A stretch of 43,209 nt of DNA from IMG/VR virus record IMGVR_UViG_3300045988_076668, positions 1 to 43,209 of that record. One strand, written 5' to 3'. Below, piece by piece: positions 3,385-40,916 of the stretch. How positions within the stretch are numbered: position 1 is the first letter of the stretch; each line of letters opens with the position of its first letter. Under the pieces are notes generated by a model. The model was not told the DNA's origin, did not search any database, and worked only from the letters and a program-made list of their open reading frames with translations. Origin of the DNA: a virus. The translations under genes and the position numbers were made by a program.

Positions 3385-3409
3385 GGTTCAAATCCCTCCT
3401 TCTCCGCCA
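3385..3409 (+). other. attP core: 25-nt 3' fragment of a tRNA-Ser-like gene
   Basis: GGTTCAAATCCCTCCTTCTCCGCCA reads as T-loop, 3' T-stem, 3' acceptor strand CTTCTCC, discriminator G and CCA. The sequence 5' of it cannot complete a cloverleaf, so it is a fragment and not a gene. Confidence 0.7.
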
Positions 3410-3417
3410 AAAGAAAA

Positions 3418-3447
3418 GCCTTGATCTTCAATGGATCAAGGCTTTTT
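3418..3447. terminator. Bidirectional rho-independent terminator
   Basis: GCCTTGATC-ttcaatg-GATCAAGGC (9-bp perfect stem) flanked by an A-rich run (AAAGAAAA) on the left and TTTTT on the right. It can stop int (+) and the cargo operon (-). Confidence 0.7.
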
Positions 3448-3536
3448 CCTTTGTGTATCAAAGGTTTTTGCAAATCGAAATGAATTTAATGTGGTTCATT
3501 TTGGAGACACAAAAAAGCAATCAAACCCGAAAAAAT

Positions 3537-3557
3537 GCACACGAAATGCACACGAAA
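3537..3557 (+). repeat. Two direct GCACACGAAA copies (candidate arm-type sites, right arm)
   Basis: GCACACGAAA at 3537-3546 and 3548-3557, with an inverted partial copy CGTGTG at 3564-3569. Confidence 0.5.
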
Positions 3558-3576
3558 AAATACCGTGTGTCCATTT

Positions 3577-4314
3577 TTAATGTTTCACGACATACTCATA
3601 ATAGGAAGCCAGCTTGTCTTTTACTGCATCCTGGTCGTCAAGCCAAAAAGCTTTTGCAAAACTAATATATGCATCAATATTGTTTATTCCCAGCTTCTTA
3701 AAGACTTCGGACAAATCACTATAAGTTGCATTCATGGCAACCTGAAATTTAATGGGGTCCTCTCTTATTCCGTGCTTTTCCATGATGCTACGGATTTGTT
3801 CCATATTCCAGTGAGGCCCACGTGTCCCGTCACTGTTTTCCATTTTCCTCATCCACTCATGAGCAATGGATTCATTGAGTTCTGGAACAAACATTGAACG
3901 AGCACCGCCTACCAGATTGTTTTCTCCGTGCATTCTGTCTCCCTCTCTCTTACTCGGGAAATTTACAACTGAACCACCGTGCATGTTTGTTTCGTAGTTA
4001 CGTTCAAATCCAATAGGACGGGTGTACGATCTATCGTCAGAATAATTCATGCCCATATAGTTATTCTGAGGTTCGTATCTCATGTCAGACCAGTCGCGCA
4101 TTCTCTCAGAGTAATAAGGCGGGAGCCAATGACTGTTTACATCATAATCTCCCATTCTGCTTTGTGGTGCATAGCGGCCGTTGTCATAATGTTCACGCCC
4201 TCTACGATCTCGGAACTTATCTTCGGGACCATATTCCATTCGATATCCCCTATTATATTCCTGATCTCGTTTATTCCCTCCGGCCATCATGAGCATTTTA
4301 GTCGAACGTTTCAT
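3577..4314 (-). CDS. Cargo protein (245 aa): R/D/Y/N-rich low-complexity N-half, globular C-terminal domain; unknown function
   Basis: Track ORF 3577..4362. ATG 4314 lies 8 nt after AAGGAGG. Sequence includes ...RDRRGREHYDNGRYAPQSRMGDYD... and ...GPHWNMEQIRSIMEKHGIREDP...YYEYVVKH. Confidence 0.7.
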   Translation of the reverse strand: MKRSTKMLMMAGGNKRDQEYNRGYRMEYGPEDKFRDRRGREHYDNGRYAPQSRMGDYDVNSHWLPPYYSERMRDWSDMRYEPQNNYMGMNYSDDRSYTRPIGFERNYETNMHGGSVVNFPSKREGDRMHGENNLVGGARSMFVPELNESIAHEWMRKMENSDGTRGPHWNMEQIRSIMEKHGIREDPIKFQVAMNATYSDLSEVFKKLGINNIDAYISFAKAFWLDDQDAVKDKLASYYEYVVKH

Positions 4315-4327
4315 TCGTTTTACCTCC

Positions 4328-4723
4328 TTAAGCAGTGGGTGCGGGCGCTGCCCCGCCATCAATAATCAATAAATTGTTATCAGGAGAACAACAAGGATTT
4401 CCTATCATACGAAACGAACCGCCGGTCGGCGTGGTAGAAACACAGACAGAATAACGTGTACGGGTTCTAATGCCCGCCGCAGTTACTTGAGAACAGTTGC
4501 GCTTAGTCAGTGGATATAATTCGGTCCCAGAACCAATGGTAATATAGACAGGAGCATTAATAGTTGTTGCCGTAGGTATCGTTTGCGCGACAACAATGCA
4601 ATACTTCTCCCTGTTTTTATAACTACCAGCCGGGAGGTTGATTTCAAGATTGCCGCCAGTGAATGCGACAGCCTGGGAAATTACTAAGTTATCGCAAAGC
4701 TTACATACAGGTTTGCAAGACAT
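4328..4723 (-). CDS. Cargo protein (131 aa), Cys-rich termini; unknown function
   Basis: Track ORF. GGAGG 7 nt upstream. Starts MSCKPVCKLCDN and ends near NPCCSPDN. Confidence 0.7.
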   Translation of the reverse strand: MSCKPVCKLCDNLVISQAVAFTGGNLEINLPAGSYKNREKYCIVVAQTIPTATTINAPVYITIGSGTELYPLTKRNCSQVTAAGIRTRTRYSVCVSTTPTGGSFRMIGNPCCSPDNNLLIIDGGAAPAPTA

Positions 4724-17600: not shown

Positions 17601-19076
17601 ATCCGATGCGTCATCAGTTACTGCGTTGTAAATAACGAATGCGCCGGCAATAGCCGTGACCGCAGCGAGAGCAGCCCCCCAGGGAGTTAATGCCATTACC
17701 GCATTGTAGGCCGTTTGAATGGCCGTCCCAGCCTTGGTGACCATACTAAGCGCCTTTACTGCTTCAGCGCCTGCTTTAACCCCTGTAACAAATTTGGAAA
17801 TATCGCTGATAAGTAGCGCAGCCTTAAATACTCCAATTGAAACTGCCGCAGAGGCAAGAATAGCGACAAAAGTTTTAACCGCATTGACAGCCTGGGTAAA
17901 ATCAAAGTTTCGGATAAACTCCAACGCTGCGTCCGCAATGTCAGACAACGCCGGTTTGATTTGCTCGTAGATAGAGATGGCAAGATTTTGGGCCTCAGTC
18001 TTGACCATCTGTGTCTTGTGCTCCAGCGTATCAGCCATTGTGCTGTACGCTTTCTCTGTGGTACCTGCGCTATTCTGTAACTTCTCCAGGTTGTCATTAA
18101 AGGTGTCAAGGCCCTGGGACACAATAGCGTTTGCAGCTTTGCCAGCTTCGGCGCTCCCCCAAAGATTCATAAGGGCTTCGGCGCTGCCATCAACATGATC
18201 AGAAAGAACCTCAATCACATCGCCAAGGCTCTTTCCTTCCTTCATTAAGGTGCCAAAACTCTTTCCGGTTTCTTTCTTGAGGATCTTCCCAACTTCGCTG
18301 CCGGTGTCGCCAAGCTCATTCAGCATGGAAGAAATATAGGTTGTGGATTCTTCTGTGCTGATACCTGCCTTTGTTAGGCTGACATAGGCAGATTCAAGGT
18401 TGCCCAGATTGACATTATAGGCGGAAGCTGTACTAATCGCTTTGCCCATTGCGCTGGCAAGCTGGTCAATCGTAGTAACACCAAGGTTTTGCGTCTGAAT
18501 CAGGCTGTCCGAAATTGATTCAGCATCGGAAGCACTCATCCCATACGCATTGATGGTGGTTGTGAGGACAGAAAGCGCAGATTCTGCATCTGTGAATCCT
18601 GCTGTGGCAAGTCGGGTTGCATCCCCAACGAGCGAAACCGCGTTTGCAGTATCTCCAGTTGCGGAAATGGCGTTGTAAACCGCCCCAGACAATTCACTTG
18701 CGGATACCCCCATCTCCGAAGACAAGTTCTGGATAGAGCTTTTCATGTCTTCGACGGACATCTGTGAAGTGTCCATGATGGTTTCAACCTGGGCAAAAGA
18801 AGATTCAAACTCTGCCCCGATCTTGCTTATCGCGACAAGTGCTCCAGCGGACGCAGTTGCGACAGCGGCAAGGGCTTTTACGATCCCATTCAATGCTGTT
18901 GTTGCAACAGAATTTAGTTTTTGATAATCCTTTGTAGTAAGTTGTGCATTTTTTTGAATTCCAGAAAACGATTTTTTTGCCTGACTTGCTGCCTTCCCAG
19001 CAGCTTTGTCTAAATCTGAAAGAAATTCTTGATAGTCACCATTAATTTCAATGGTTACAGAACCATCTGCCGCCAT
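14643..19076 (-). CDS. Tape measure protein (1477 aa)
   Basis: Track ORF. Size, Ala/Ser/Gly-rich helical composition, and position after the chaperone/Gp15 genes. Confidence 0.92.
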   Translation of the reverse strand: MAADGSVTIEINGDYQEFLSDLDKAAGKAASQAKKSFSGIQKNAQLTTKDYQKLNSVATTALNGIVKALAAVATASAGALVAISKIGAEFESSFAQVETIMDTSQMSVEDMKSSIQNLSSEMGVSASELSGAVYNAISATGDTANAVSLVGDATRLATAGFTDAESALSVLTTTINAYGMSASDAESISDSLIQTQNLGVTTIDQLASAMGKAISTASAYNVNLGNLESAYVSLTKAGISTEESTTYISSMLNELGDTGSEVGKILKKETGKSFGTLMKEGKSLGDVIEVLSDHVDGSAEALMNLWGSAEAGKAANAIVSQGLDTFNDNLEKLQNSAGTTEKAYSTMADTLEHKTQMVKTEAQNLAISIYEQIKPALSDIADAALEFIRNFDFTQAVNAVKTFVAILASAAVSIGVFKAALLISDISKFVTGVKAGAEAVKALSMVTKAGTAIQTAYNAVMALTPWGAALAAVTAIAGAFVIYNAVTDDASDSQAQLSDSIKELNDDLEAQKQQQEELAQTRESNLSSVNAEIGATEDYISELQGLIDANGKVKDGYEQRAQFLAEQINSVIPNAISLAKDEAGVYIEVADSIDQLIFAKKKEMTLDAMQEEYSNALTGQIEANKNLTQAVDNLAEARRNLAEVQANSRGDERSLAEISAAEDKVRQTERAYEDAKNSALDYQQTINDFEAVGAAQNMDELNSAIQRLSDGFVEFNGSNIAEVETAVGNAIVLYQQLIADAAASWTEMSPSVQANMVGLIEQAQAAMQEQVGVFREAGGYIPTEIANGANEYSYVLPESIQKIVDQAAQYAATNGTPFLNSGQIYDFLMASGIISNGQAVSDATKQVADQAGEAGKQTATQNGGETAAEFGDGYSSRMPSTEAEMEQSTKTAVDNATSGAQGAAASGGQQVGYTIGTNADGSLKISASSMPSTMKGVVGDTISAGDSAASGAGTVGETAVNSAANGLTASGGMLTTAFSGLIDTGVQSALGATASATLISTGIVDKISSGISSGTPDVVSALNNLVTTSVLSSATGASGAAKSVGLAIASGVAAGINAGASQAISAASNMAKSALAAAKSALDIHSPSKAFRWIGEQSVAGLVLGLNDKAKNAQAAAEKLADVVLKETSKLYDKIAEIEAAAQKRADEKELADYEKSLAEKYERLEEAEVDERQDILDEIAELKEDWNEKQLKKQEEAQKEELQSAIDALEEMEDEYQSALDDLKSDRDSLASKLSGDNLFETDYKGETRLLNLDKDIQEIERYGNAMLALQEKGVDAGLYSEILQMEMDEATAFAEKLLSLNDDQYTAYMEAYQKRAEAAKNIAAQIYQDEFESLNQEFVDKMPDELKAAGEDAMTSLAVGVQEEGSTAIAAAKKVADGIIAEINRINAAARLRETVTVSAGSASYRLTRSTDNAMEAKQVESNGSAYRVANAVSFASAPRGDREIVLNVNGKAFARAIVNDIRAVEDQSPRIVSD

Positions 19077-22193: not shown

Positions 22194-22573
22194 GGAAAGC
22201 ACCTCCCACCGCGATAGAGCAAGCCAGTTCTTCCAAGATATCTGGATACAATGGAAGACATCTCAACTATAGAGTTCTTCGCTAATTCTGCCGAACTTCG
22301 GTAACTCACAGAGTAACTACCAACCGTCTCACTGGACTTCTCTCCGGTTTCGCTTATAGATGATTCTTGCGCTTTCTCAATAACCTTGTACTGCTCAGAA
22401 AGAGCACAGCAAGCGTCCTTTATTTCCAGCATAGACGCATTCTCAGAGGCTTTTCCGACTGTGATGTAGTCCAGATATTCACTTGCCCGCTTTGCCAGCA
22501 TTGGGAACTCAGATTCTGGAATCAACGTCCCAAGGTAGGTTTCTTTGTAATATGTATAATCCGCATATACCAT
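22172..22573 (-). CDS. gp6-like head-tail connector protein (133 aa)
   Basis: Track ORF. N-terminus MVYADYTYYKETYLGTLIPESEF...ASEYLDYIT is typical of this family. Confidence 0.65.
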   Translation of the reverse strand: MVYADYTYYKETYLGTLIPESEFPMLAKRASEYLDYITVGKASENASMLEIKDACCALSEQYKVIEKAQESSISETGEKSSETVGSYSVSYRSSAELAKNSIVEMSSIVSRYLGRTGLLYRGGRCFPCTPHTL

Positions 22574-22585
22574 AAGAAACCTCCT

Positions 22586-22987
22586 TTATTTTCCCGACTT
22601 TCTGGACGCCTTTGGCTTAGGGTCAAACGTAGCTTTTTTAAAGTTGAATATTACAGCACTTTGCTCATCAACTAAAACCTCAAAAGTATCATTTTCTTCA
22701 ACGCGGAAAATAATATCTGCATCAAAAGGAATGTCCTGTTTGGTTGGCGTTCCATTCTTTTTGAACGTCATTACACTTCCGGTTTTTGTCAGATGAAACG
22801 GGAAATAATACCCGCTCTGCTCTTCTGGGGCGCTGCTGAATTCCGTATAATCAGGAACATAGTGGAATGTCCCGACTACGGAACCATCTTTCTTAACCTT
22901 CAAATCATCACCTACAAGCTCTGAGACTTGTTTCCCCAATAGGGTCTGACTGCTGGGGAAGAGCGTTAAGATGTCAGACCCGATCAT
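22586..22987 (-). CDS. Hypothetical head-module protein (133 aa)
   Basis: Track ORF directly after the major capsid gene. Confidence 0.5.
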   Translation of the reverse strand: MIGSDILTLFPSSQTLLGKQVSELVGDDLKVKKDGSVVGTFHYVPDYTEFSSAPEEQSGYYFPFHLTKTGSVMTFKKNGTPTKQDIPFDADIIFRVEENDTFEVLVDEQSAVIFNFKKATFDPKPKASRKSGK

Positions 22988-27369: not shown

Positions 27370-28572
27370 TCACCTCATAACCGGAAAATGCCGGACCATA
27401 ATCGTATTACAAAAGTACCTTATGTCATCCATTGCATGATCATCTTCTTTAATTACTTTGTCTACCGTAGAATCTTCATCCCAACGATATAATCTAAACT
27501 CTCGGATAGCATCTTTGCAACTACGATGTATTTTGAGACGACCATCTTTCAAATAAACCGATGTTCTTCTAATTCCATCCATAACATCGTTATTTGCTTT
27601 TACCACTTGGAATTCTCCGTGGCGAAAAATTGTCGTAATGAATGAGGCGGCAGAAGGATCAACTATAACGTAATCCACATTATATCCCTTCGCTAAATCT
27701 CGTAATGCCTGATAATACTCTTCGTCTGTTTTTTGTATGTTGGTTCTTCGTCCGCTGTGATAGTATTCTTTGATCCGAACCGCCCCTTGTTTTGTCACGC
27801 ACCACAGCCCAGCGGAGAAAGGATTCAGCGTGCCATAATCTACGGAAATATAATATCGACCTGATGCAGGCTCTTCATCCACCACACAATGCTCTCCAAA
27901 ATGCGGATATACCAGCCCCTCCGCCGGAATCCACAACCCTCTAATGAACCGATCATAAAACACGCCGGAAAACATGGATTCATACTGCTCAATGACCTTC
28001 TCCGTCAGCCCTGGGTTATCTCGCATGGTAAAGTGAAGATACAGTGCATTTCTTTTATCATGCTTCTTAATCCATTCCAAATAAAACCAATGCTGCGGAC
28101 TTTCTGGGTTGCAGGAGAACCATTTCTTGTTTCCATCTACAGAACAACGCGCCAGGGCCTGTTCCACGAAGGAACGGGGCATAAGCGCAACCTCATCCAA
28201 TAGAACACCTGCCAGCGTTCGCCCTTGGATCAGTGCTGCGCTGCTTTCATCCTTGCCGCCAAACACCTCAAACCAATTTGTCGTAGTTCCCCGGCGCACC
28301 TCAAGGATCTTCTCTGATCGGCGCCAACGCATGGTATACTTTTCTTTTGCCAGCGTCATAGCTGTGAAAGGGACAATAATATTCTTTGAGCATGAATCAA
28401 CGGTTTTCCCACAAATACCAAACCGCTGACCAGAGAAGTTTTCCATGGCCCAGCGAACAAACGCCCACATCATGATAGAGGTTTTGCCCGATCGGACTGC
28501 ACCGTCACAGATAATGGCATCATATTTGGAGTATGGGAATGCAAGGATTTTCTTTTGTTGTGGACTAATCAT
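27370..28572 (-). CDS. terL: Terminase large subunit (400 aa)
   Basis: Track ORF. Walker A-like DGAVRSGKT near the N-terminus. C-terminal nuclease-type acidic motifs (VIVDPSAASF, DHAMDD). Confidence 0.92.
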   Translation of the reverse strand: MISPQQKKILAFPYSKYDAIICDGAVRSGKTSIMMWAFVRWAMENFSGQRFGICGKTVDSCSKNIIVPFTAMTLAKEKYTMRWRRSEKILEVRRGTTTNWFEVFGGKDESSAALIQGRTLAGVLLDEVALMPRSFVEQALARCSVDGNKKWFSCNPESPQHWFYLEWIKKHDKRNALYLHFTMRDNPGLTEKVIEQYESMFSGVFYDRFIRGLWIPAEGLVYPHFGEHCVVDEEPASGRYYISVDYGTLNPFSAGLWCVTKQGAVRIKEYYHSGRRTNIQKTDEEYYQALRDLAKGYNVDYVIVDPSAASFITTIFRHGEFQVVKANNDVMDGIRRTSVYLKDGRLKIHRSCKDAIREFRLYRWDEDSTVDKVIKEDDHAMDDIRYFCNTIMVRHFPVMR

Positions 28573-28984
28573 CGCTTTCCAACCCTTCCGCCAGTTCTCT
28601 CAAACTCTGGCTCAAACCATCTTCCTTGGCATCATTCCCAGGACCACCGCCAAAGGCTGTGAATTTATCAATCAGTGTCCCAAGCGCTGTCGTAACCTCT
28701 GCGGCGCTGCGCGCATTCTGAATCTTCTCTGGAAGAACGGAAAGTCCTACCTCAATAATATCGCATACTGCTTGCCTGCGACTTTCCATGTAGGCCAGGA
28801 TATCGGCTGTATTTTCTTCCTTTTTTTGTCTAAGTTTCTCTGCGAAATCTTCAGATGCCTCCACGACACGCCGAGCAGTTTCCCCACACACATGATTTCT
28901 TTTGGCAACTGCGTTGTAGCTGCCAAGTTCCAGATAATCAGCCACTATTTTCTTTTTCTGCTTATCTGTCAACCGTGCAGCCAT
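28565..28984 (-). CDS. terS: Terminase small subunit candidate (139 aa)
   Basis: Track ORF 28565..29158 extends spuriously through the tRNA. ATG 28984 lies 7 nt after GAGG. N-terminal HTH-like MAARLTDKQKKKIVADYLELGSYNAVAKRN. 8-nt overlap with terL. Confidence 0.75.
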   Translation of the reverse strand: MAARLTDKQKKKIVADYLELGSYNAVAKRNHVCGETARRVVEASEDFAEKLRQKKEENTADILAYMESRRQAVCDIIEVGLSVLPEKIQNARSAAEVTTALGTLIDKFTAFGGGPGNDAKEDGLSQSLRELAEGLESDD

Positions 28985-29013
28985 AACTAACCTCATCAAT
29001 AAAAATCTATTTT

Positions 29014-29090
29014 TGGTGGTCCGCCCTGGAGTCGAACCAGGATGTCCCCGGTTATGAGCCGGGCGCTCTGACCATTTGAGATAGCGGACC
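29014..29090 (-). tRNA. tRNA with CAU anticodon (Met or Ile2/lysidine type), CCA-encoded, 77 nt
   Basis: Folded by hand: acceptor GGTCCGC/GCGGACC, U8, A14, G18G19, anticodon arm CCCGG-CTCATAA-CCGGG, T arm CCTGG-TTCGACT-CCAGG, discriminator A, CCA. The D stem has only 3 Watson-Crick pairs. Confidence 0.85.
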
Positions 29091-29518
29091 AGATACCCCT
29101 TGCGGGGTATGTCGGGGGTTTTGTCAGGCTTCCCGAAGGCCTGTTTGTACTTCCGCACGCACCTTCACTTAGATTGTCTGCGTCTCCAACCGCAGGTTTC
29201 AGTGAAATGGAGAATGGTACGTGCTTAGGTTCACTTTGCGGCCGCAAAGCAATTTGCTGATTCGATGAAAGCACAATCTCCTTCCATCAAATTTCCCCAG
29301 CTGGGAATGGTCACCCGTTTTGGAGTTGCACCAAAATCCGCTCTGGCCGGGTGATAGGGAGGCGAGAACAAGGCTCGCGCTCCCAAAGAAAAAGGAGGTA
29401 CGCCCGATATTAAGACCGCCTCGGAGCCGGGCGAAGGAGGAAGAAAATCTTCTGTTTTATACATAGCGAGAAAGAAAATAAATTTTCTTTCTCGCGTATA
29501 TGTATAAAACCATTTCCT
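29091..29518 (-). ncRNA. About 430-nt highly structured untranslated RNA between a consensus promoter and the tRNA; class unknown
   Basis: No credible CDS. At least 9 hand-paired helices, including a GNRA-capped stem abutting the tRNA. See finding. Confidence 0.5.
29454..29510 (-). other. 57-nt bulged hairpin (26 bp) at the 5' end of the predicted transcript
   Basis: GTTTTATACATA/TATGTATAAAAC (12 bp), a 3-nt bulge, then GCGAGAAAGAAAAT/ATTTTCTTTCTCGC (14 bp). No U tract follows on either strand. Confidence 0.8.
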
Positions 29519-29524
29519 GCTTAA

Positions 29525-29553
29525 ATTATATCGCAGCCCTCCATTTCGGTCAA
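29525..29553 (-). promoter_or_regulatory. Near-consensus sigma-70/sigma-A promoter TTGACC-17 nt-TATAAT facing terS
   Basis: Minus strand: TTGACC at 29553-29548, a 17-nt spacer, TATAAT at 29530-29525. It starts 27 nt after the RuvC-like stop. Confidence 0.7.
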
Positions 29554-29579
29554 ATTGTTAGACGATCTTAACACTTTGT

Positions 29580-30047
29580 TTACAATTTTAATTTTGTCTC
29601 TGTGTACGTAATTCCAACCGCATACGCCGCCCATACATCGGCAGAGAACCCATAGAACCAATCTGGATTCTTTTTGGTTCCCTTCCCGTTTTTCAGATCA
29701 TGGGTTGCAAATCGGTCAATCAGTGCGCGGCGGATATTGGCATCCTTGGCCCTGCTGTCATGGCAGAGATGGAGCTTTTCATCCTGGCGGTATATGTAGT
29801 CCACTGGCTTCTGTGCTGCTTGCGTGAATCTCCCAACCCATTCGCAGGTTTCAAAAACATTGCGTCCAACCGGCATGCCGTAGCTTGCCAAACGCTCAAT
29901 CACCACAAGATCATACTTCTCCAACTGGAGAATCAAAAGGACCACGGCATTTTGTTCTTTGCCAAACCGCAGCGGACGTAAATCTTCGCTGTCTATGAAG
30001 CAATAGGCGCTCTGCTTGTCCCCTGGGTCAATCGCTAAGATTGTCAT
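29580..30047 (-). CDS. RuvC-like Holliday-junction resolvase (155 aa)
   Basis: Track ORF. N-terminal MTILAIDPG and an acidic IERL motif are typical of the RuvC/RNase H fold. Confidence 0.78.
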   Translation of the reverse strand: MTILAIDPGDKQSAYCFIDSEDLRPLRFGKEQNAVVLLILQLEKYDLVVIERLASYGMPVGRNVFETCEWVGRFTQAAQKPVDYIYRQDEKLHLCHDSRAKDANIRRALIDRFATHDLKNGKGTKKNPDWFYGFSADVWAAYAVGITYTETKLKL

Positions 30048-30502
30048 TCATTGCCCTCATGCTGTCCGCCCTCCCCGTCGTGGATGGAGCCGATGACCTC
30101 AATTCTGCTCGTTGACAGATGCATATTTACGCCCATGCTTTCAGCGCCATTCAACCAAACACAAAATCTATTCCACTCTTGGTCATAGCATACAGGGGCT
30201 TCTTTTTGTTCGCCGTTCCAGTTCGTCCAATGGATGATATCCCCCTCAAAAATCTTCGTTCCGTTCTTATCGGTCATTCCGGTGTACTCGCAGACCGTGG
30301 AGGGGGCAACAGGAAACACCTCCTTCATAATTCGCTGCGTGCTTTTTGCGCTATGAAATGGGCGAAGTTCTCTCGCTAAAGACTTGCTGATTACCTGATT
30401 GCCTGCCGGGTAAATCCAAGATTTGTTGTCTCTTTCAACGTAGTACCCTTCCACCCATTCGCCATTATCCAGCCGCTTAGCTTTGAAAAGGATTTCTCTC
30501 AT
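30044..30502 (-). CDS. YopX-family protein (152 aa)
   Basis: Track ORF. Contains MREILFKAKRLDNGEWVEGYY, EYTGMTDKNGTKIFEGDII and IEVIGSIHD. Confidence 0.78.
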   Translation of the reverse strand: MREILFKAKRLDNGEWVEGYYVERDNKSWIYPAGNQVISKSLARELRPFHSAKSTQRIMKEVFPVAPSTVCEYTGMTDKNGTKIFEGDIIHWTNWNGEQKEAPVCYDQEWNRFCVWLNGAESMGVNMHLSTSRIEVIGSIHDGEGGQHEGNE

Positions 30503-40798: not shown

Positions 40799-40826
40799 TT
40801 GACAAACCTCCAATTTTTGTTACAAT
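40799..40826 (+). promoter_or_regulatory. Plus-strand promoter TTGACA-16 nt-TACAAT with TG extension
   Basis: TTGACA at 40799-40804 and TGtTACAAT at 40818-40826. It faces against the early operon and overlaps the SD of the 40797 gene. Confidence 0.6.
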
Positions 40827-40832
40827 AAAGTT

Positions 40833-40916
40833 AAGCGGAAGAAACATAGCTTATTTTTTCAAGTATTCTCCTTTCTGAACTCTGCCGGTGCTGCAAACCG
40901 GCAGAGTTTATTTTTC
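40833..40916 (+). ncRNA. About 85-nt antisense sRNA candidate (5' stem-loop, U-rich/anti-SD single strand, intrinsic terminator)
   Basis: Bounded by the promoter above and the terminator below. Contains no ATG. See finding. Confidence 0.5.
40878..40915 (+). terminator. Rho-independent terminator oriented for the plus strand
   Basis: AACTCTGCCGGT-gctgcaa-ACCGGCAGAGTT (12-bp perfect stem) followed by TATTTTT on the plus strand. The minus strand has no U tract after the stem. Confidence 0.75.

Follow-up and report, generated by a model that had tools for sequence, protein, structure and literature searches.

On the minus strand of the window, by which we mean the entire 43,209-nt stretch of viral DNA analysed here (IMG/VR record IMGVR_UViG_3300045988_076668), a 489-nt region and a tRNA-Met(CAT) gene (29014-29090) lie between the replication and the DNA-packaging genes. 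The tRNA was identified by ARAGORN and fits the cloverleaf covariance model of Rfam RF00005 with 53.2 bits, where the gathering score is 29. It is followed by a gene (28565-28984) that, judged by its position and its relatives, putatively encodes the small terminase subunit and is the first of the packaging/late operon. The large terminase gene (28572-27370) comes next, and Pfam matches in the operon are to large terminase, an SPP1-type portal and minor capsid protein 2. An intrinsic-terminator-like hairpin (24587-24550), consisting of a 17-bp stem and then UUUUUUAU, separates the gene for minor capsid protein 2 from the scaffold/capsid genes within the operon and is predicted to be a candidate terminator. 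No promoter-like site was found between this hairpin and the scaffold gene.

An earlier reading of the letters by a model (hereafter the sequence-only reading) had claimed that the 489-nt region contains no credible coding sequence, and comparison with related loci bears this out. One open reading frame (29274-28996) reads across the tRNA and another (29464-29231) across a hairpin described below, while relatives carry frame-breaking indels inside these frames, a 5-nt deletion and a 29-nt insertion. A coding reading was dropped because of these indels and the overlap with the tRNA. The same earlier reading had pointed to a minus-strand promoter, TTGACC-17-TATAAT (29553-29525), which proved to be the single 11/12 match on that strand within 28000-30500. 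Across 29 versions of the region (the window and 28 distinct relatives) the -10 hexamer TATAAT (29525-29530) is invariant and the -35 hexamer TTGACC (29548-29553) is unchanged in 28, whereas the spacer varies by up to five substitutions. The promoter is of the sigma-70 type by sequence, from which transcription would start at approximately 29518, and no minus-strand terminator was found between it and the small terminase gene. Scans upstream of the RNA in other family members returned only weak 9/12 sites; possession of a strong promoter of its own thus characterises the window's family and not the RNA family as a whole.

A folded non-coding RNA between replication and packaging genes

The folded non-coding RNA specified by the stretch between the replication and the DNA-packaging genes is real and approximately 430 nt long. 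The minimum free energy of 29520-29014 is -196.7 kcal/mol, compared with -155.2 +/- 6.2 kcal/mol for shuffled sequences (z = -6.7), and the covariation that had been named as a test of the proposed structure is present among relatives, with compensatory changes in the first hairpin of the transcript (hairpin 1), in a module termed M3 and in a 3'-terminal core, including its pseudoknot. As judged from predicted folds and homology, the architecture is modular, comprising a 5' module, family-specific helices, M3 and the core.

The core (29091-29145, minus strand; 75.5 bits with covariance model R1) forms the final 55 nt of the RNA and consists of an H-type pseudoknot plus a 7-bp hairpin. Helix P1 pairs 29143-39 with 29129-25, the pseudoknot pairs 29136-32 with 29116-12, an A-rich linker spans 29124-17, and P2 (29110-04 / 29099-93), closed by a GCAA loop, is followed by the 2-nt spacer CU (29092-91). 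Both P1 and the 7-bp stem next to the tRNA had been drawn by hand in the sequence-only reading, and both display compensatory changes among distinct cores; the UUCG-containing apex assigned to 29125-43, by contrast, is no tetraloop, since 29136-29132 pairs with 29116-29112 as the pseudoknot. The stems of P1 and P2 are nearly invariant in most versions, and in a first count of 32 closely related cores just one pair had changed on both sides; only when divergent cores had been recovered by covariance-model search did covariation become informative. Among 53 distinct cores, compensatory changes occur in P1, in P2 and in four of the five pseudoknot pairs (covariants GCGG/CCGC, CCGG/CCGG, CGGG/CCCG, GCAGG/CCUGC and GUGAG/CUCAC), in an alignment that is fitted to the structure and so leans towards it. 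This alignment was made by script in a fixed register, with mismatched sequences kept, and replaced a covariance-model alignment whose pseudoknot register was wrong. The loops of the core vary while the stems stay, and its unpaired nucleotides include invariant ones.

Module M3 (29155-29224, minus strand; z = -3.5, with covariation within the family) is built from an outer helix (29224-16 / 29163-55), an inner helix (29207-01 / 29169-63) and a variable hairpin (29195-178), with the conserved junction strands GAAAC (29200-196) and ACAAUCUA (29177-170); the same module with GAAAAC / GUGACAAUCUA strands occurs in many other families. Compensatory changes are found in five of the seven pairs of the inner helix, where AU/UA/GC covariation supports the previously proposed pairing 29206-01 / 29169-64, and the inner hairpin 29195-91 / 29182-78 is likewise upheld. 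A further proposed helix, 29221-26 / 29269-74, competes with the better supported long-range outer helix.

At the other end of the RNA, just after the predicted start, lies hairpin 1 (29454-29510, minus strand), a 26-bp bulged hairpin or palindrome whose 57 nt are far more stable than expected (z = -10.5) and in which three pairs show double compensatory changes, in agreement with the earlier proposal. It is specific to the window's family, and in the related locus L035 a gene for an XRE-type helix-turn-helix (HTH) protein occupies its place. The 5' module (29401-29443, minus strand) combines a CU-rich tract (29443-29433) with the hairpin CGCCCGG...UCGGGCG (29433-27 / 29407-01), which in the predicted fold contains the proposed helix 29433-28 / 29406-01. 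Alone it is no more stable than shuffled sequences; its homologue in L281 and L285, two short forms, is fused straight onto the core. There follows (29357-29399, minus strand; z = -4.3) a second CU-rich, anti-Shine-Dalgarno-like tract (29399-29385) with the hairpin GGGAGCGCGAG...CUCGCCUCCC (29384-29357), itself part of the earlier proposal; L035 has a different 10-bp hairpin in its place, and related GGGAGC...GCUCCC hairpins are present in other families. Together with the CU tract, the GGGAGC...GCUCCC hairpin of L134 and of phage Chenonceau has a terminator-like score, a reading that was not applied to the window because its CU tract precedes the hairpin. The central, family-specific part (29278-29354, minus strand) is predicted to contain the proposed hairpin 29354-48 / 29317-11 with its inner stem, the hairpin 29307-29293 and a purine tract, GGAAGGAG (29285-78), that would pair with the CU tract 29399-85. 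Its helices display no double compensatory changes among close relatives, so that covariation speaks neither for nor against them. The 16-nt palindrome CUUUGCGGCCGCAAAG (29234-29249, minus strand), predicted to form a hairpin, shows one-sided G-U changes only, and L144 carries a 5-nt deletion in its 3' arm. The window's family retains approximately 290 extra structured nucleotides.

Spacing to the tRNA and genomic context

The start of the tRNA is held at a nearly fixed distance from the core, namely at +2, the offset in the window, in 15 distinct contexts, at +4 in three and at +1 in one. At least five different tRNA genes take the core-adjoining position in related loci, and the dinucleotide after P2 is not conserved (CU, AU, AC and CC are all found). 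As an alternative to the tRNA, a covarying hairpin with a GCNNGA loop begins 4 nt after the core, and one copy of this hairpin ends in ...GGC-ACCA, resembling the acceptor end of a tRNA. M3 and the core obey a common slot rule, each being followed by AUAU or CU and next by a tRNA or a GCNNGA hairpin. Even where an anti-repressor gene has been inserted, a P2 hairpin still stands immediately in front of the tRNA.

In all loci examined the core precedes the packaging module, whatever first gene follows; behind it come putative small-terminase genes of several unrelated types or, in front of the terminase genes, one for an HNH endonuclease or an anti-repressor. Most other families have a small gene for an XRE-type regulator upstream of the RNA. 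Three layouts depart from the simple order: in L209 the modules are split apart by small ORFs and tRNAs, in L131 an opposite-strand gene block separates the RNA from the small terminase gene, and in L113 the core lies 13-20 nt past the stop codon of a coding sequence, without a promoter of its own.

Distribution and relation to known RNAs

Copies of the core turned up in more than 118 IMG/VR contigs, in genomes of gut Clostridia and in Chenonceau (ON453904.1), an inducible prophage of Flavonifractor plautii YL31. Modules related to those of the RNA are also present in a second prophage of this strain, Castelnaud (ON453903.1). M3 and the 5' CU-rich module (29443-29401) are shared across families, and family RNAs range from approximately 150 to 450 nt. 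When the RNA of the window was compared by blastn with 50,697 phage records, similarity was confined to the tRNA; members from other lineages matched two Flavonifractor phages. A whole-window Rfam scan at gathering thresholds gave nothing, missing even the tRNA, and because this result is unreliable alone we relied on permissive local scans. Against Rfam 15, cmscan returned the tRNA and noise only, both for 28700-29900 (E<=10) and for seven other family members (E<=0.5). The core sequence had no match in 200 of the 408 supplementary files of a catalogue of candidate structured RNAs (PMC8040213), and a prior listing is possible. On the evidence of these sequence comparisons, the RNA belongs to a modular family that occurs in phages of gut Clostridia and has no counterpart in Rfam.

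ROOL and GOLLD are large multi-helix RNAs of Firmicutes phages and prophages that often lie beside tRNAs or contain them, and the sequence-only reading had offered kinship with them as its first hypothesis. What stands is membership of a loose class of large ornate phage RNAs, since the present RNA is multi-helix, tRNA-adjacent and covarying, a class that is descriptive and not a homologous family. The kinship itself does not: in the scans of 28700-29900 (E<=10) and of the seven other members (E<=0.5) neither the curated ROOL model (RF03087) nor that of GOLLD (RF01998) was matched and no relative was detectable, and the present RNAs are shorter (approximately 150 to 450 nt) and made of other modules. 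As no Rfam family matches, the RNA is taken not to be ROOL, GOLLD, pistol or HDV-like.

Discussion

The reading that we favour, with a probability of roughly 0.4, is that the region specifies a non-coding leader RNA of the packaging/late operon that would be cut by RNase P at the tRNA and may be an antiterminator. Host sigma-A RNA polymerase would initiate at approximately 29518 and transcribe, in order, hairpin 1, the CU-rich 5' module, the family-specific helices, M3 and the 55-nt core, before running on through tRNA-Met to the gene for the small terminase. The 5' end of every bacterial tRNA is matured by RNase P; it speaks against the model that a hairpin starting at -3 should hinder the binding of the RNase P protein to the leader. 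We infer a cut at 29091/29090, which would release an RNA of approximately 428 nt that ends in the P2 hairpin with a 2-nt overhang; the core would therefore be a built-in 3' cap, and the RNA would presumably be stable. In phages that lack a tRNA here, the GCNNGA-loop hairpin fills the same slot. At the 3' ends of MALAT1 and MEN-beta, a triple helix is followed by the tRNA-like mascRNA, and cleavage by RNase P leaves a protected 3' end upstream. The likeness is that of a compact structure with an A-rich strand directly upstream of a tRNA or tRNA-like element; those RNAs, however, are eukaryotic and nuclear and form a U-A-U triple helix, whereas the present core is an H-type pseudoknot plus a hairpin with a presumed RNase P cut.

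More tentatively, and by analogy, the nascent or released RNA might act on the transcribing polymerase as a processive antiterminator, like HK022 put, EAR, canT and conAn2. Late transcription could thereby pass terminators such as 24587-24550; the presence of this strong predicted terminator inside the operon is what suggests antitermination. Two traits of the class are found at the locus, namely a promoter-proximal leader, with approximately 430 nt between the upstream promoter and the tRNA and small terminase gene, and a predicted internal intrinsic terminator (17-bp stem plus U-run) between head genes. Cis-acting antiterminator RNAs of 70 to 450 nt are on record, some of them from Firmicutes mobile elements (PMC9378689, PMC11658703, PMC8191782). 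HK022 put (putL/putR) consists of two stem elements and a triplex-forming strand, acts on RNA polymerase without protein factors and is found near the start of a long phage operon, behind a promoter, putR being approximately 270 nt from the start (PMC9378689). The present RNA resembles put in heading a phage operon downstream of a promoter, but shares no sequence or structural homology with it, and put, from an enterobacterial phage, has neither an H-type pseudoknot nor a link to tRNA. The leader canT of Tn916 is a structured cis-acting RNA of 341-452 nt in the operon of a Gram-positive mobile element (PMC11658703), and canT, conAn2 of pLS20 (which requires the ConAn1 protein) and EAR are cis-acting leaders of long operons with internal terminators (PMC11658703, PMC8191782). 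These three, set against the present RNA by description and not by sequence, serve conjugative elements or a host operon instead of phage late operons, and none is reported to adjoin tRNAs.

A late-operon leader had already been among the proposals of the sequence-only reading. The position at the head of the packaging module, the upstream promoter or XRE-type gene and the internal terminator all speak for it, but the fixed spacing of 2-4 nt to the tRNA is not accounted for by antitermination, and the layouts of L209 and L131 look, from their gene order, more like RNA punctuation than a single leader. A near-consensus constitutive promoter ahead of late genes also needs some repression mechanism; that hairpin 1 could be an operator is a guess. 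If the leader reading is correct, a large group of temperate phages infecting dominant gut Clostridia (Oscillospiraceae and relatives) opens its packaging/late operon with a conserved, modular RNA, which would be a candidate for late transcription control in phages lacking any known late regulator and would add one well-supported pseudoknot motif and two modules to the structured RNAs outside Rfam. The strict spatial rule ties a structured RNA to tRNA 5' ends and so points to a coupling of tRNA processing and phage gene expression. The presence of the family in the inducible prophage Chenonceau of a cultivable OMM12 strain makes these ideas directly testable.

A rather doubtful alternative is that the RNA, made from its own promoter and trimmed by RNase P at the tRNA, is a stable stand-alone molecule that acts in trans on a host or phage target (in anti-defence, as a scaffold or as a sponge) and not on its own operon, as is suspected for ROOL and GOLLD. 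Consistent with such a role are the strong promoter, the protected 3' end, the strictly conserved junction nucleotides of M3 and the core, which suggest a specific partner, and the CU-rich anti-Shine-Dalgarno-like tracts, which could bind purine-rich RNA. The modular, insertion-tolerant layout with embedded tRNAs also fits, an architecture of this kind having been reported for GOLLD. It should be emphasized, however, that no terminator follows the RNA, so that transcription would continue into the small terminase gene, that the RNA always heads the packaging module, and that some cores, as in L113, are promoterless.

It is unlikely that M3, the core and the GCNNGA hairpins are purely punctuation in RNA, that is, processing and stability signals, with no further activity, that mark the excision of tRNAs or tRNA-like elements, protect the new 3' ends and uncouple the fate of early from that of late mRNA. 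The single slot rule behind both modules, the acceptor-like end of one GCNNGA hairpin, the lone P2 hairpin retained before the tRNA after gene insertion and the interspersion of modules with ORFs in L209 are all to be expected of such signals. A protective hairpin, however, needs no conserved pseudoknot, A-rich linker or invariant GAAAAC / GUGACAAUCUA strands, nor does this role explain the approximately 290 extra structured nucleotides kept in the window's family.

It is very improbable that the core is a new small self-cleaving ribozyme whose cut, at its 3' border, generates the 5' end of the tRNA independently of RNase P and separates the leader from the late mRNA. The compact pseudoknotted fold with invariant unpaired nucleotides, the sharp module borders and the fixed distance of 2-4 nt to tRNA +1 would suit a ribozyme, and the topology is partly that of pistol, an RNA of approximately 50 nt in which the loop of a 5-bp hairpin pairs with a strand further downstream, the hairpin being followed by an A-rich linker and a second hairpin. 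The order of these elements is the same in the core; however, the core lacks a P2-type helix, its linker has 7 nt instead of approximately 17, and it conserves neither a G-U cleavage site nor the nucleotides where the cut would fall (CU, AU, AC or CC). Pistol (RF02679) was rejected, as its model gave no match and the linker has no conserved complement in the sequence that follows P2. Theta ribozymes reportedly sit on the 3' side of the tRNA, where they cleave at their own 5' terminus. These minimal HDV-like ribozymes adjoin tRNA genes in human gut phages and have a proposed role in tRNA maturation (PMC10879173). The core, in contrast, lies 5' of the tRNA, and the nested double pseudoknot cannot be drawn on it; the strand after P1 is A-rich (ACCAAAC, ACAAAAC, GAAAAA) and has no upstream complement in any family, on which grounds an HDV-like or theta fold was rejected. 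Neither an HDV-type nor any other ribozyme family of Rfam matched in 28700-29900 or in the seven other members. The wider proposition, that the core is either a self-cleaving class or an obligatory guide for a nuclease cutting 2-4 nt past the last helix, is also highly unlikely; were it true, a cut independent of downstream sequence would make tRNA 5' ends and detach the leader from the late mRNA, and the theta ribozymes, said to sit 3' of gut-phage tRNAs, would have in the core their counterpart on the 5' side.

Hardly credible, finally, is a site acting as DNA (cos/pac, as the sequence-only reading had also considered, a site bound by the terminase or a regulator, or an operator), in which the palindromes are inverted repeats bound by protein: the location just upstream of the terminase genes, the near-invariant P1 and P2 stems of most versions and the 26-bp palindrome by the promoter, replaced in L035 by the gene for an XRE-type regulator, would fit, but the compensatory changes in the pseudoknot and in hairpins with variable loops argue that selection acts on a folded single strand, the element is specific to one strand and shares the orientation of the tRNAs, and the large terminase and the portal of SPP1 type hint weakly at a headful mechanism and not at cos.

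In current annotation the RNA appears either not at all or as small 'hypothetical proteins'.

A structured non-coding RNA upstream of a tRNA

On the minus strand of the window a promoter-like site, TTGACC-17-TATAAT (29553-29525), comes after a Holliday-junction resolvase gene (30047-29580, PHROG 1770) and is the sole 11/12 consensus match on this strand in the 2.5 kb scanned. Some 430 nt without a credible coding sequence then lead to a tRNA-Met(CAT) (29090-29014, identified by tRNA calling and a local Rfam scan), a putative small terminase gene starting at 28984, and genes for the large terminase, SPP1-type portal and minor capsid protein 2. Two ORFs within the gap cross the tRNA or begin inside hairpin 1 (29510-29454), the 26-bp palindrome after the promoter. 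The 507 nt from 29520 to 29014 have a minimum free energy of -196.7 kcal/mol, compared with -155.2 ± 6.2 kcal/mol for dinucleotide shuffles (z = -6.7).

Resolvase and small terminase queries each retrieved about 80 IMG/VR loci, among which the gap occurs in 28 distinct versions with 87-97% identity. The -10 hexamer is invariant, the -35 hexamer is unchanged in 28 of 29 gap versions, and the spacer carries at most five substitutions. Because a 5-nt deletion and a 29-nt insertion in relatives fall inside its ORFs, the gap is non-coding. Compensatory changes occur in hairpin 1 (A-U to G-C once, and the block GAG/CUC to GGC/GCC) and in inner helices of the 3' domain, where one pair is AU (10), UA (8) or GC (4) and others alternate CG/UA or GC/UA; the long-range helix 29224-16/29163-55 shows many G-U changes on one side only. 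One locus, L035, has an XRE-type helix-turn-helix gene (4478-4696) in place of the promoter and hairpin 1, and an unrelated 10-bp hairpin where the window has hairpin 29384-29357. Homology among relatives ends sharply at 29092-29091, past which lie the same tRNA-Met, another tRNA-Met, or a hairpin and then an anti-repressor gene. The sequence-only reading, which had placed a structured non-coding RNA 5' of the tRNA, is thus borne out, with two corrections, by the promoter-like site, the indels, the fold and the covariation, the last extending through hairpin 1, module M3 (29224-29155) and the core described below.

A conserved pseudoknot and its accompanying modules

In far more distant phages only the last 55 nt of the RNA (29145-29091, the core) are conserved, the 5' flanks being unrelated; in some, a DNA methylase gene stop codon lies 13-20 nt before the core. 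A pattern scan of IMG/VR recovered at least 118 stretches comprising at least 51 distinct versions, which were too alike to show covariation. Divergent cores were retrieved by covariance model search, in L120, L135 and L139, and later in L116, L279, L281, L285, L291 and phage Chenonceau. Pairs were counted in a hand-made alignment that sets 53 distinct cores in a fixed register, is fitted to the structure proposed and keeps sequences with mismatches. One pair of helix P1 was AU in 45 and CG in 6, and one of hairpin P2 was CG in 47 and GC in 6. Between the P1 loop and the downstream linker, the first pseudoknot pair was GC in 39 and CG in 11, the second CG in 47, GC in 3 and UA in 2, an inserted pair AU in 6 and GC in 2, the fourth GC in 47 and AU in 2, and the fifth GC in all 53; non-pairs numbered at most four at every core pair. 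The pseudoknot therefore exists as GCGG/CCGC, CCGG/CCGG, CGGG/CCCG, GCAGG/CCUGC and GUGAG/CUCAC variants, the window having CGGG/CCCG with the register shifted by one on both strands. Judged from this alignment, the core forms an H-type pseudoknot crossed by an A-rich strand, and what had been read as a UUCG-containing apex is instead the pseudoknot's 5' strand. The sequence A-R-C follows, and then a 7-bp hairpin whose loop is NNAA.

Many families have M3, with GAAAAC and GUGACAAUCUA as its near-invariant junction strands, and five of the seven pairs of its inner helix show changes on both sides. The 5' module (29443-29401), a CU-rich tract plus hairpin, is homologous to a segment in the short forms L281 and L285, where it is fused straight to the core and a tRNA comes next. 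As 5' module and core are adjacent there, the window's family has about 290 nt between them, M3 included; in other families tRNAs, tRNA-like sequences or small ORFs lie between modules. In L134 (3750-3780) and L292 (phage Chenonceau, 2295-2322) a weak promoter-like site stands just 5' of a GGGAGC...GCUCCC hairpin with a CU-rich tract behind it. Hairpin and tract together score as an intrinsic terminator and may be a leader attenuator; the window has the reverse order, with the CU tract 5' of the hairpin.

Spacing to tRNAs

Counted from the end of P2, a tRNA that follows the core starts at 2 nt in 15 distinct contexts, at 4 nt in three and at 1 nt in one; at least five different tRNA genes take this position. 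When no tRNA follows, a 12-13-bp hairpin with a GCNNGA loop begins 4 nt after P2 (L134 3896-4000; L113 3938-4000; L290, L291 and many others). Its consensus is AUAUGCCGYGCC...GCAUGAGAC...GGGGGCGG, and its stem covaries freely. A paralogous hairpin often lies upstream of the core, and its end, ...GGUGGC-ACCA, resembles a tRNA acceptor end. M3 obeys the same rule, being followed by AUAU and then tRNA-Thr (L209) or the GCNNGA hairpin. In L045, where an anti-repressor gene is inserted between core and tRNA, a second copy of a P2-type hairpin (1571-1607, ACACCCC-GAAA-GGGGUAU) stands alone, 2 nt 5' of the tRNA. If the core acts as a cap beside the tRNA, its nearest analogue is the MALAT1 triple helix, which adjoins mascRNA. 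In L238 (~3400-3560), L139 (~3640-3780) and L203, the interval between the ACCA-ending hairpin and the core contains a tRNA-like sequence (GAGCGGUGGCGGAAUAGGUAGACGC ... CCGCUCA) interrupted by a long insert; ARAGORN called no tRNA in it.

Genomic context and hosts

Among the matches listed, pattern-only loci have the core on the same strand as the packaging genes and ahead of them, with several unrelated putative small-terminase types downstream; alternatively, it precedes an HNH endonuclease or anti-repressor gene set before the terminase genes. A small XRE-type gene lies upstream of the RNA at 79 loci in most families (L113: 2763-2963); it is absent from the window, whose family has the consensus promoter and hairpin 1 in that place. 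The hosts are gut Clostridia: Muriventricola aceti (Oscillospiraceae), Flavonifractor plautii, a 'Clostridiales' isolate genome and Ruminiclostridium-labelled MAGs. The inducible OMM12 prophage Chenonceau (ON453904.1) has the core; in Castelnaud (ON453903.1) similarity to a family member covers M3 and the GCNNGA hairpin, the core covariance model giving no match there. Both share the order regulator, RNA, anti-repressor or HNH, small terminase, large terminase; the overlapping small 'hypothetical proteins' called by PHANOTATE over the RNA (Chenonceau 18215-18698, Castelnaud 22244-22744) are probably false gene calls. Cultivable lysogens carry the RNA, which opens the family to experimental testing. 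On a Muriventricola aceti contig (L291, 1662-1709, minus), about 5 kb 3' of the core on the same strand, the Rfam gut-2 RNA motif is matched just below threshold (37 bits against a gathering score of 39.8, E = 3e-4).

Relation to known RNAs and possible function

Nothing but tRNAs and noise came out of permissive Rfam 15 scans, run at E<=10 for the window region and at E<=0.5 for seven other members of the family, so the RNA does not belong to ROOL or GOLLD, the classes first suggested for it, nor to pistol, HDV-like, EAR or other curated Rfam families. The absence of matches at gathering thresholds across the full window should not be trusted alone, as that scan missed the tRNA which the local scan found at 29017-29090 (53 bits against a gathering score of 29). 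What emerges is a new and well-supported family of structured RNAs, unusual in its tie to tRNA 5' ends.

Given a functional, co-transcribed tRNA, RNase P would be strongly expected to cut at 29091/29090, leaving an upstream RNA that ends in a hairpin with a 2-nt overhang. Such an overhang would be too short for a 3' exonuclease to engage. More tentatively, the RNA may be a leader that acts as an antiterminator, as one of the first proposals had it, making RNA polymerase terminator-resistant. It lies at the head of the operon, and no minus-strand terminator was found between the promoter and the small terminase gene. The late operon also contains a strong intrinsic-terminator-like hairpin (24587-24550, minus; a 17-bp stem, then UUUUUUAU), which follows the gene for minor capsid protein 2 and precedes those for scaffold and capsid; no promoter-like site was found between it and the latter. 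By position and size the nearest analogues are the cis-acting antiterminators put (~70 nt, two stems and a triplex; PMC9378689), canT (341-452 nt; PMC11658703) and conAn2 (PMC8191782). Antitermination, however, leaves the spacing rule unexplained, ORFs are interspersed among the modules in some lineages, and L131 has opposite-strand genes between RNA and small terminase gene. That the RNA is instead a stable species acting in trans is possible if rather doubtful, and that it serves purely as punctuation for processing and stability is a little less probable again. A new ribozyme is very improbable: the core shares with pistol a loop-to-linker pseudoknot and a second hairpin, but lacks pistol's P2 helix and cleavage-site dinucleotide, and an HDV-like fold would have the 5' end form a helix with the strand following the first hairpin, a strand that in the core is A-rich and without a partner. 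We give equally little credence to a DNA site, the proposed cos/pac region having found no support.

Elsewhere in the window, on the plus strand, a 14-bp terminator-like hairpin (40876-40910) lies no more than 50 nt downstream of a TG-extended promoter-like site (11/12; 40799-40826), and the pair could specify a short transcript or attenuator of the early or lysogeny region.
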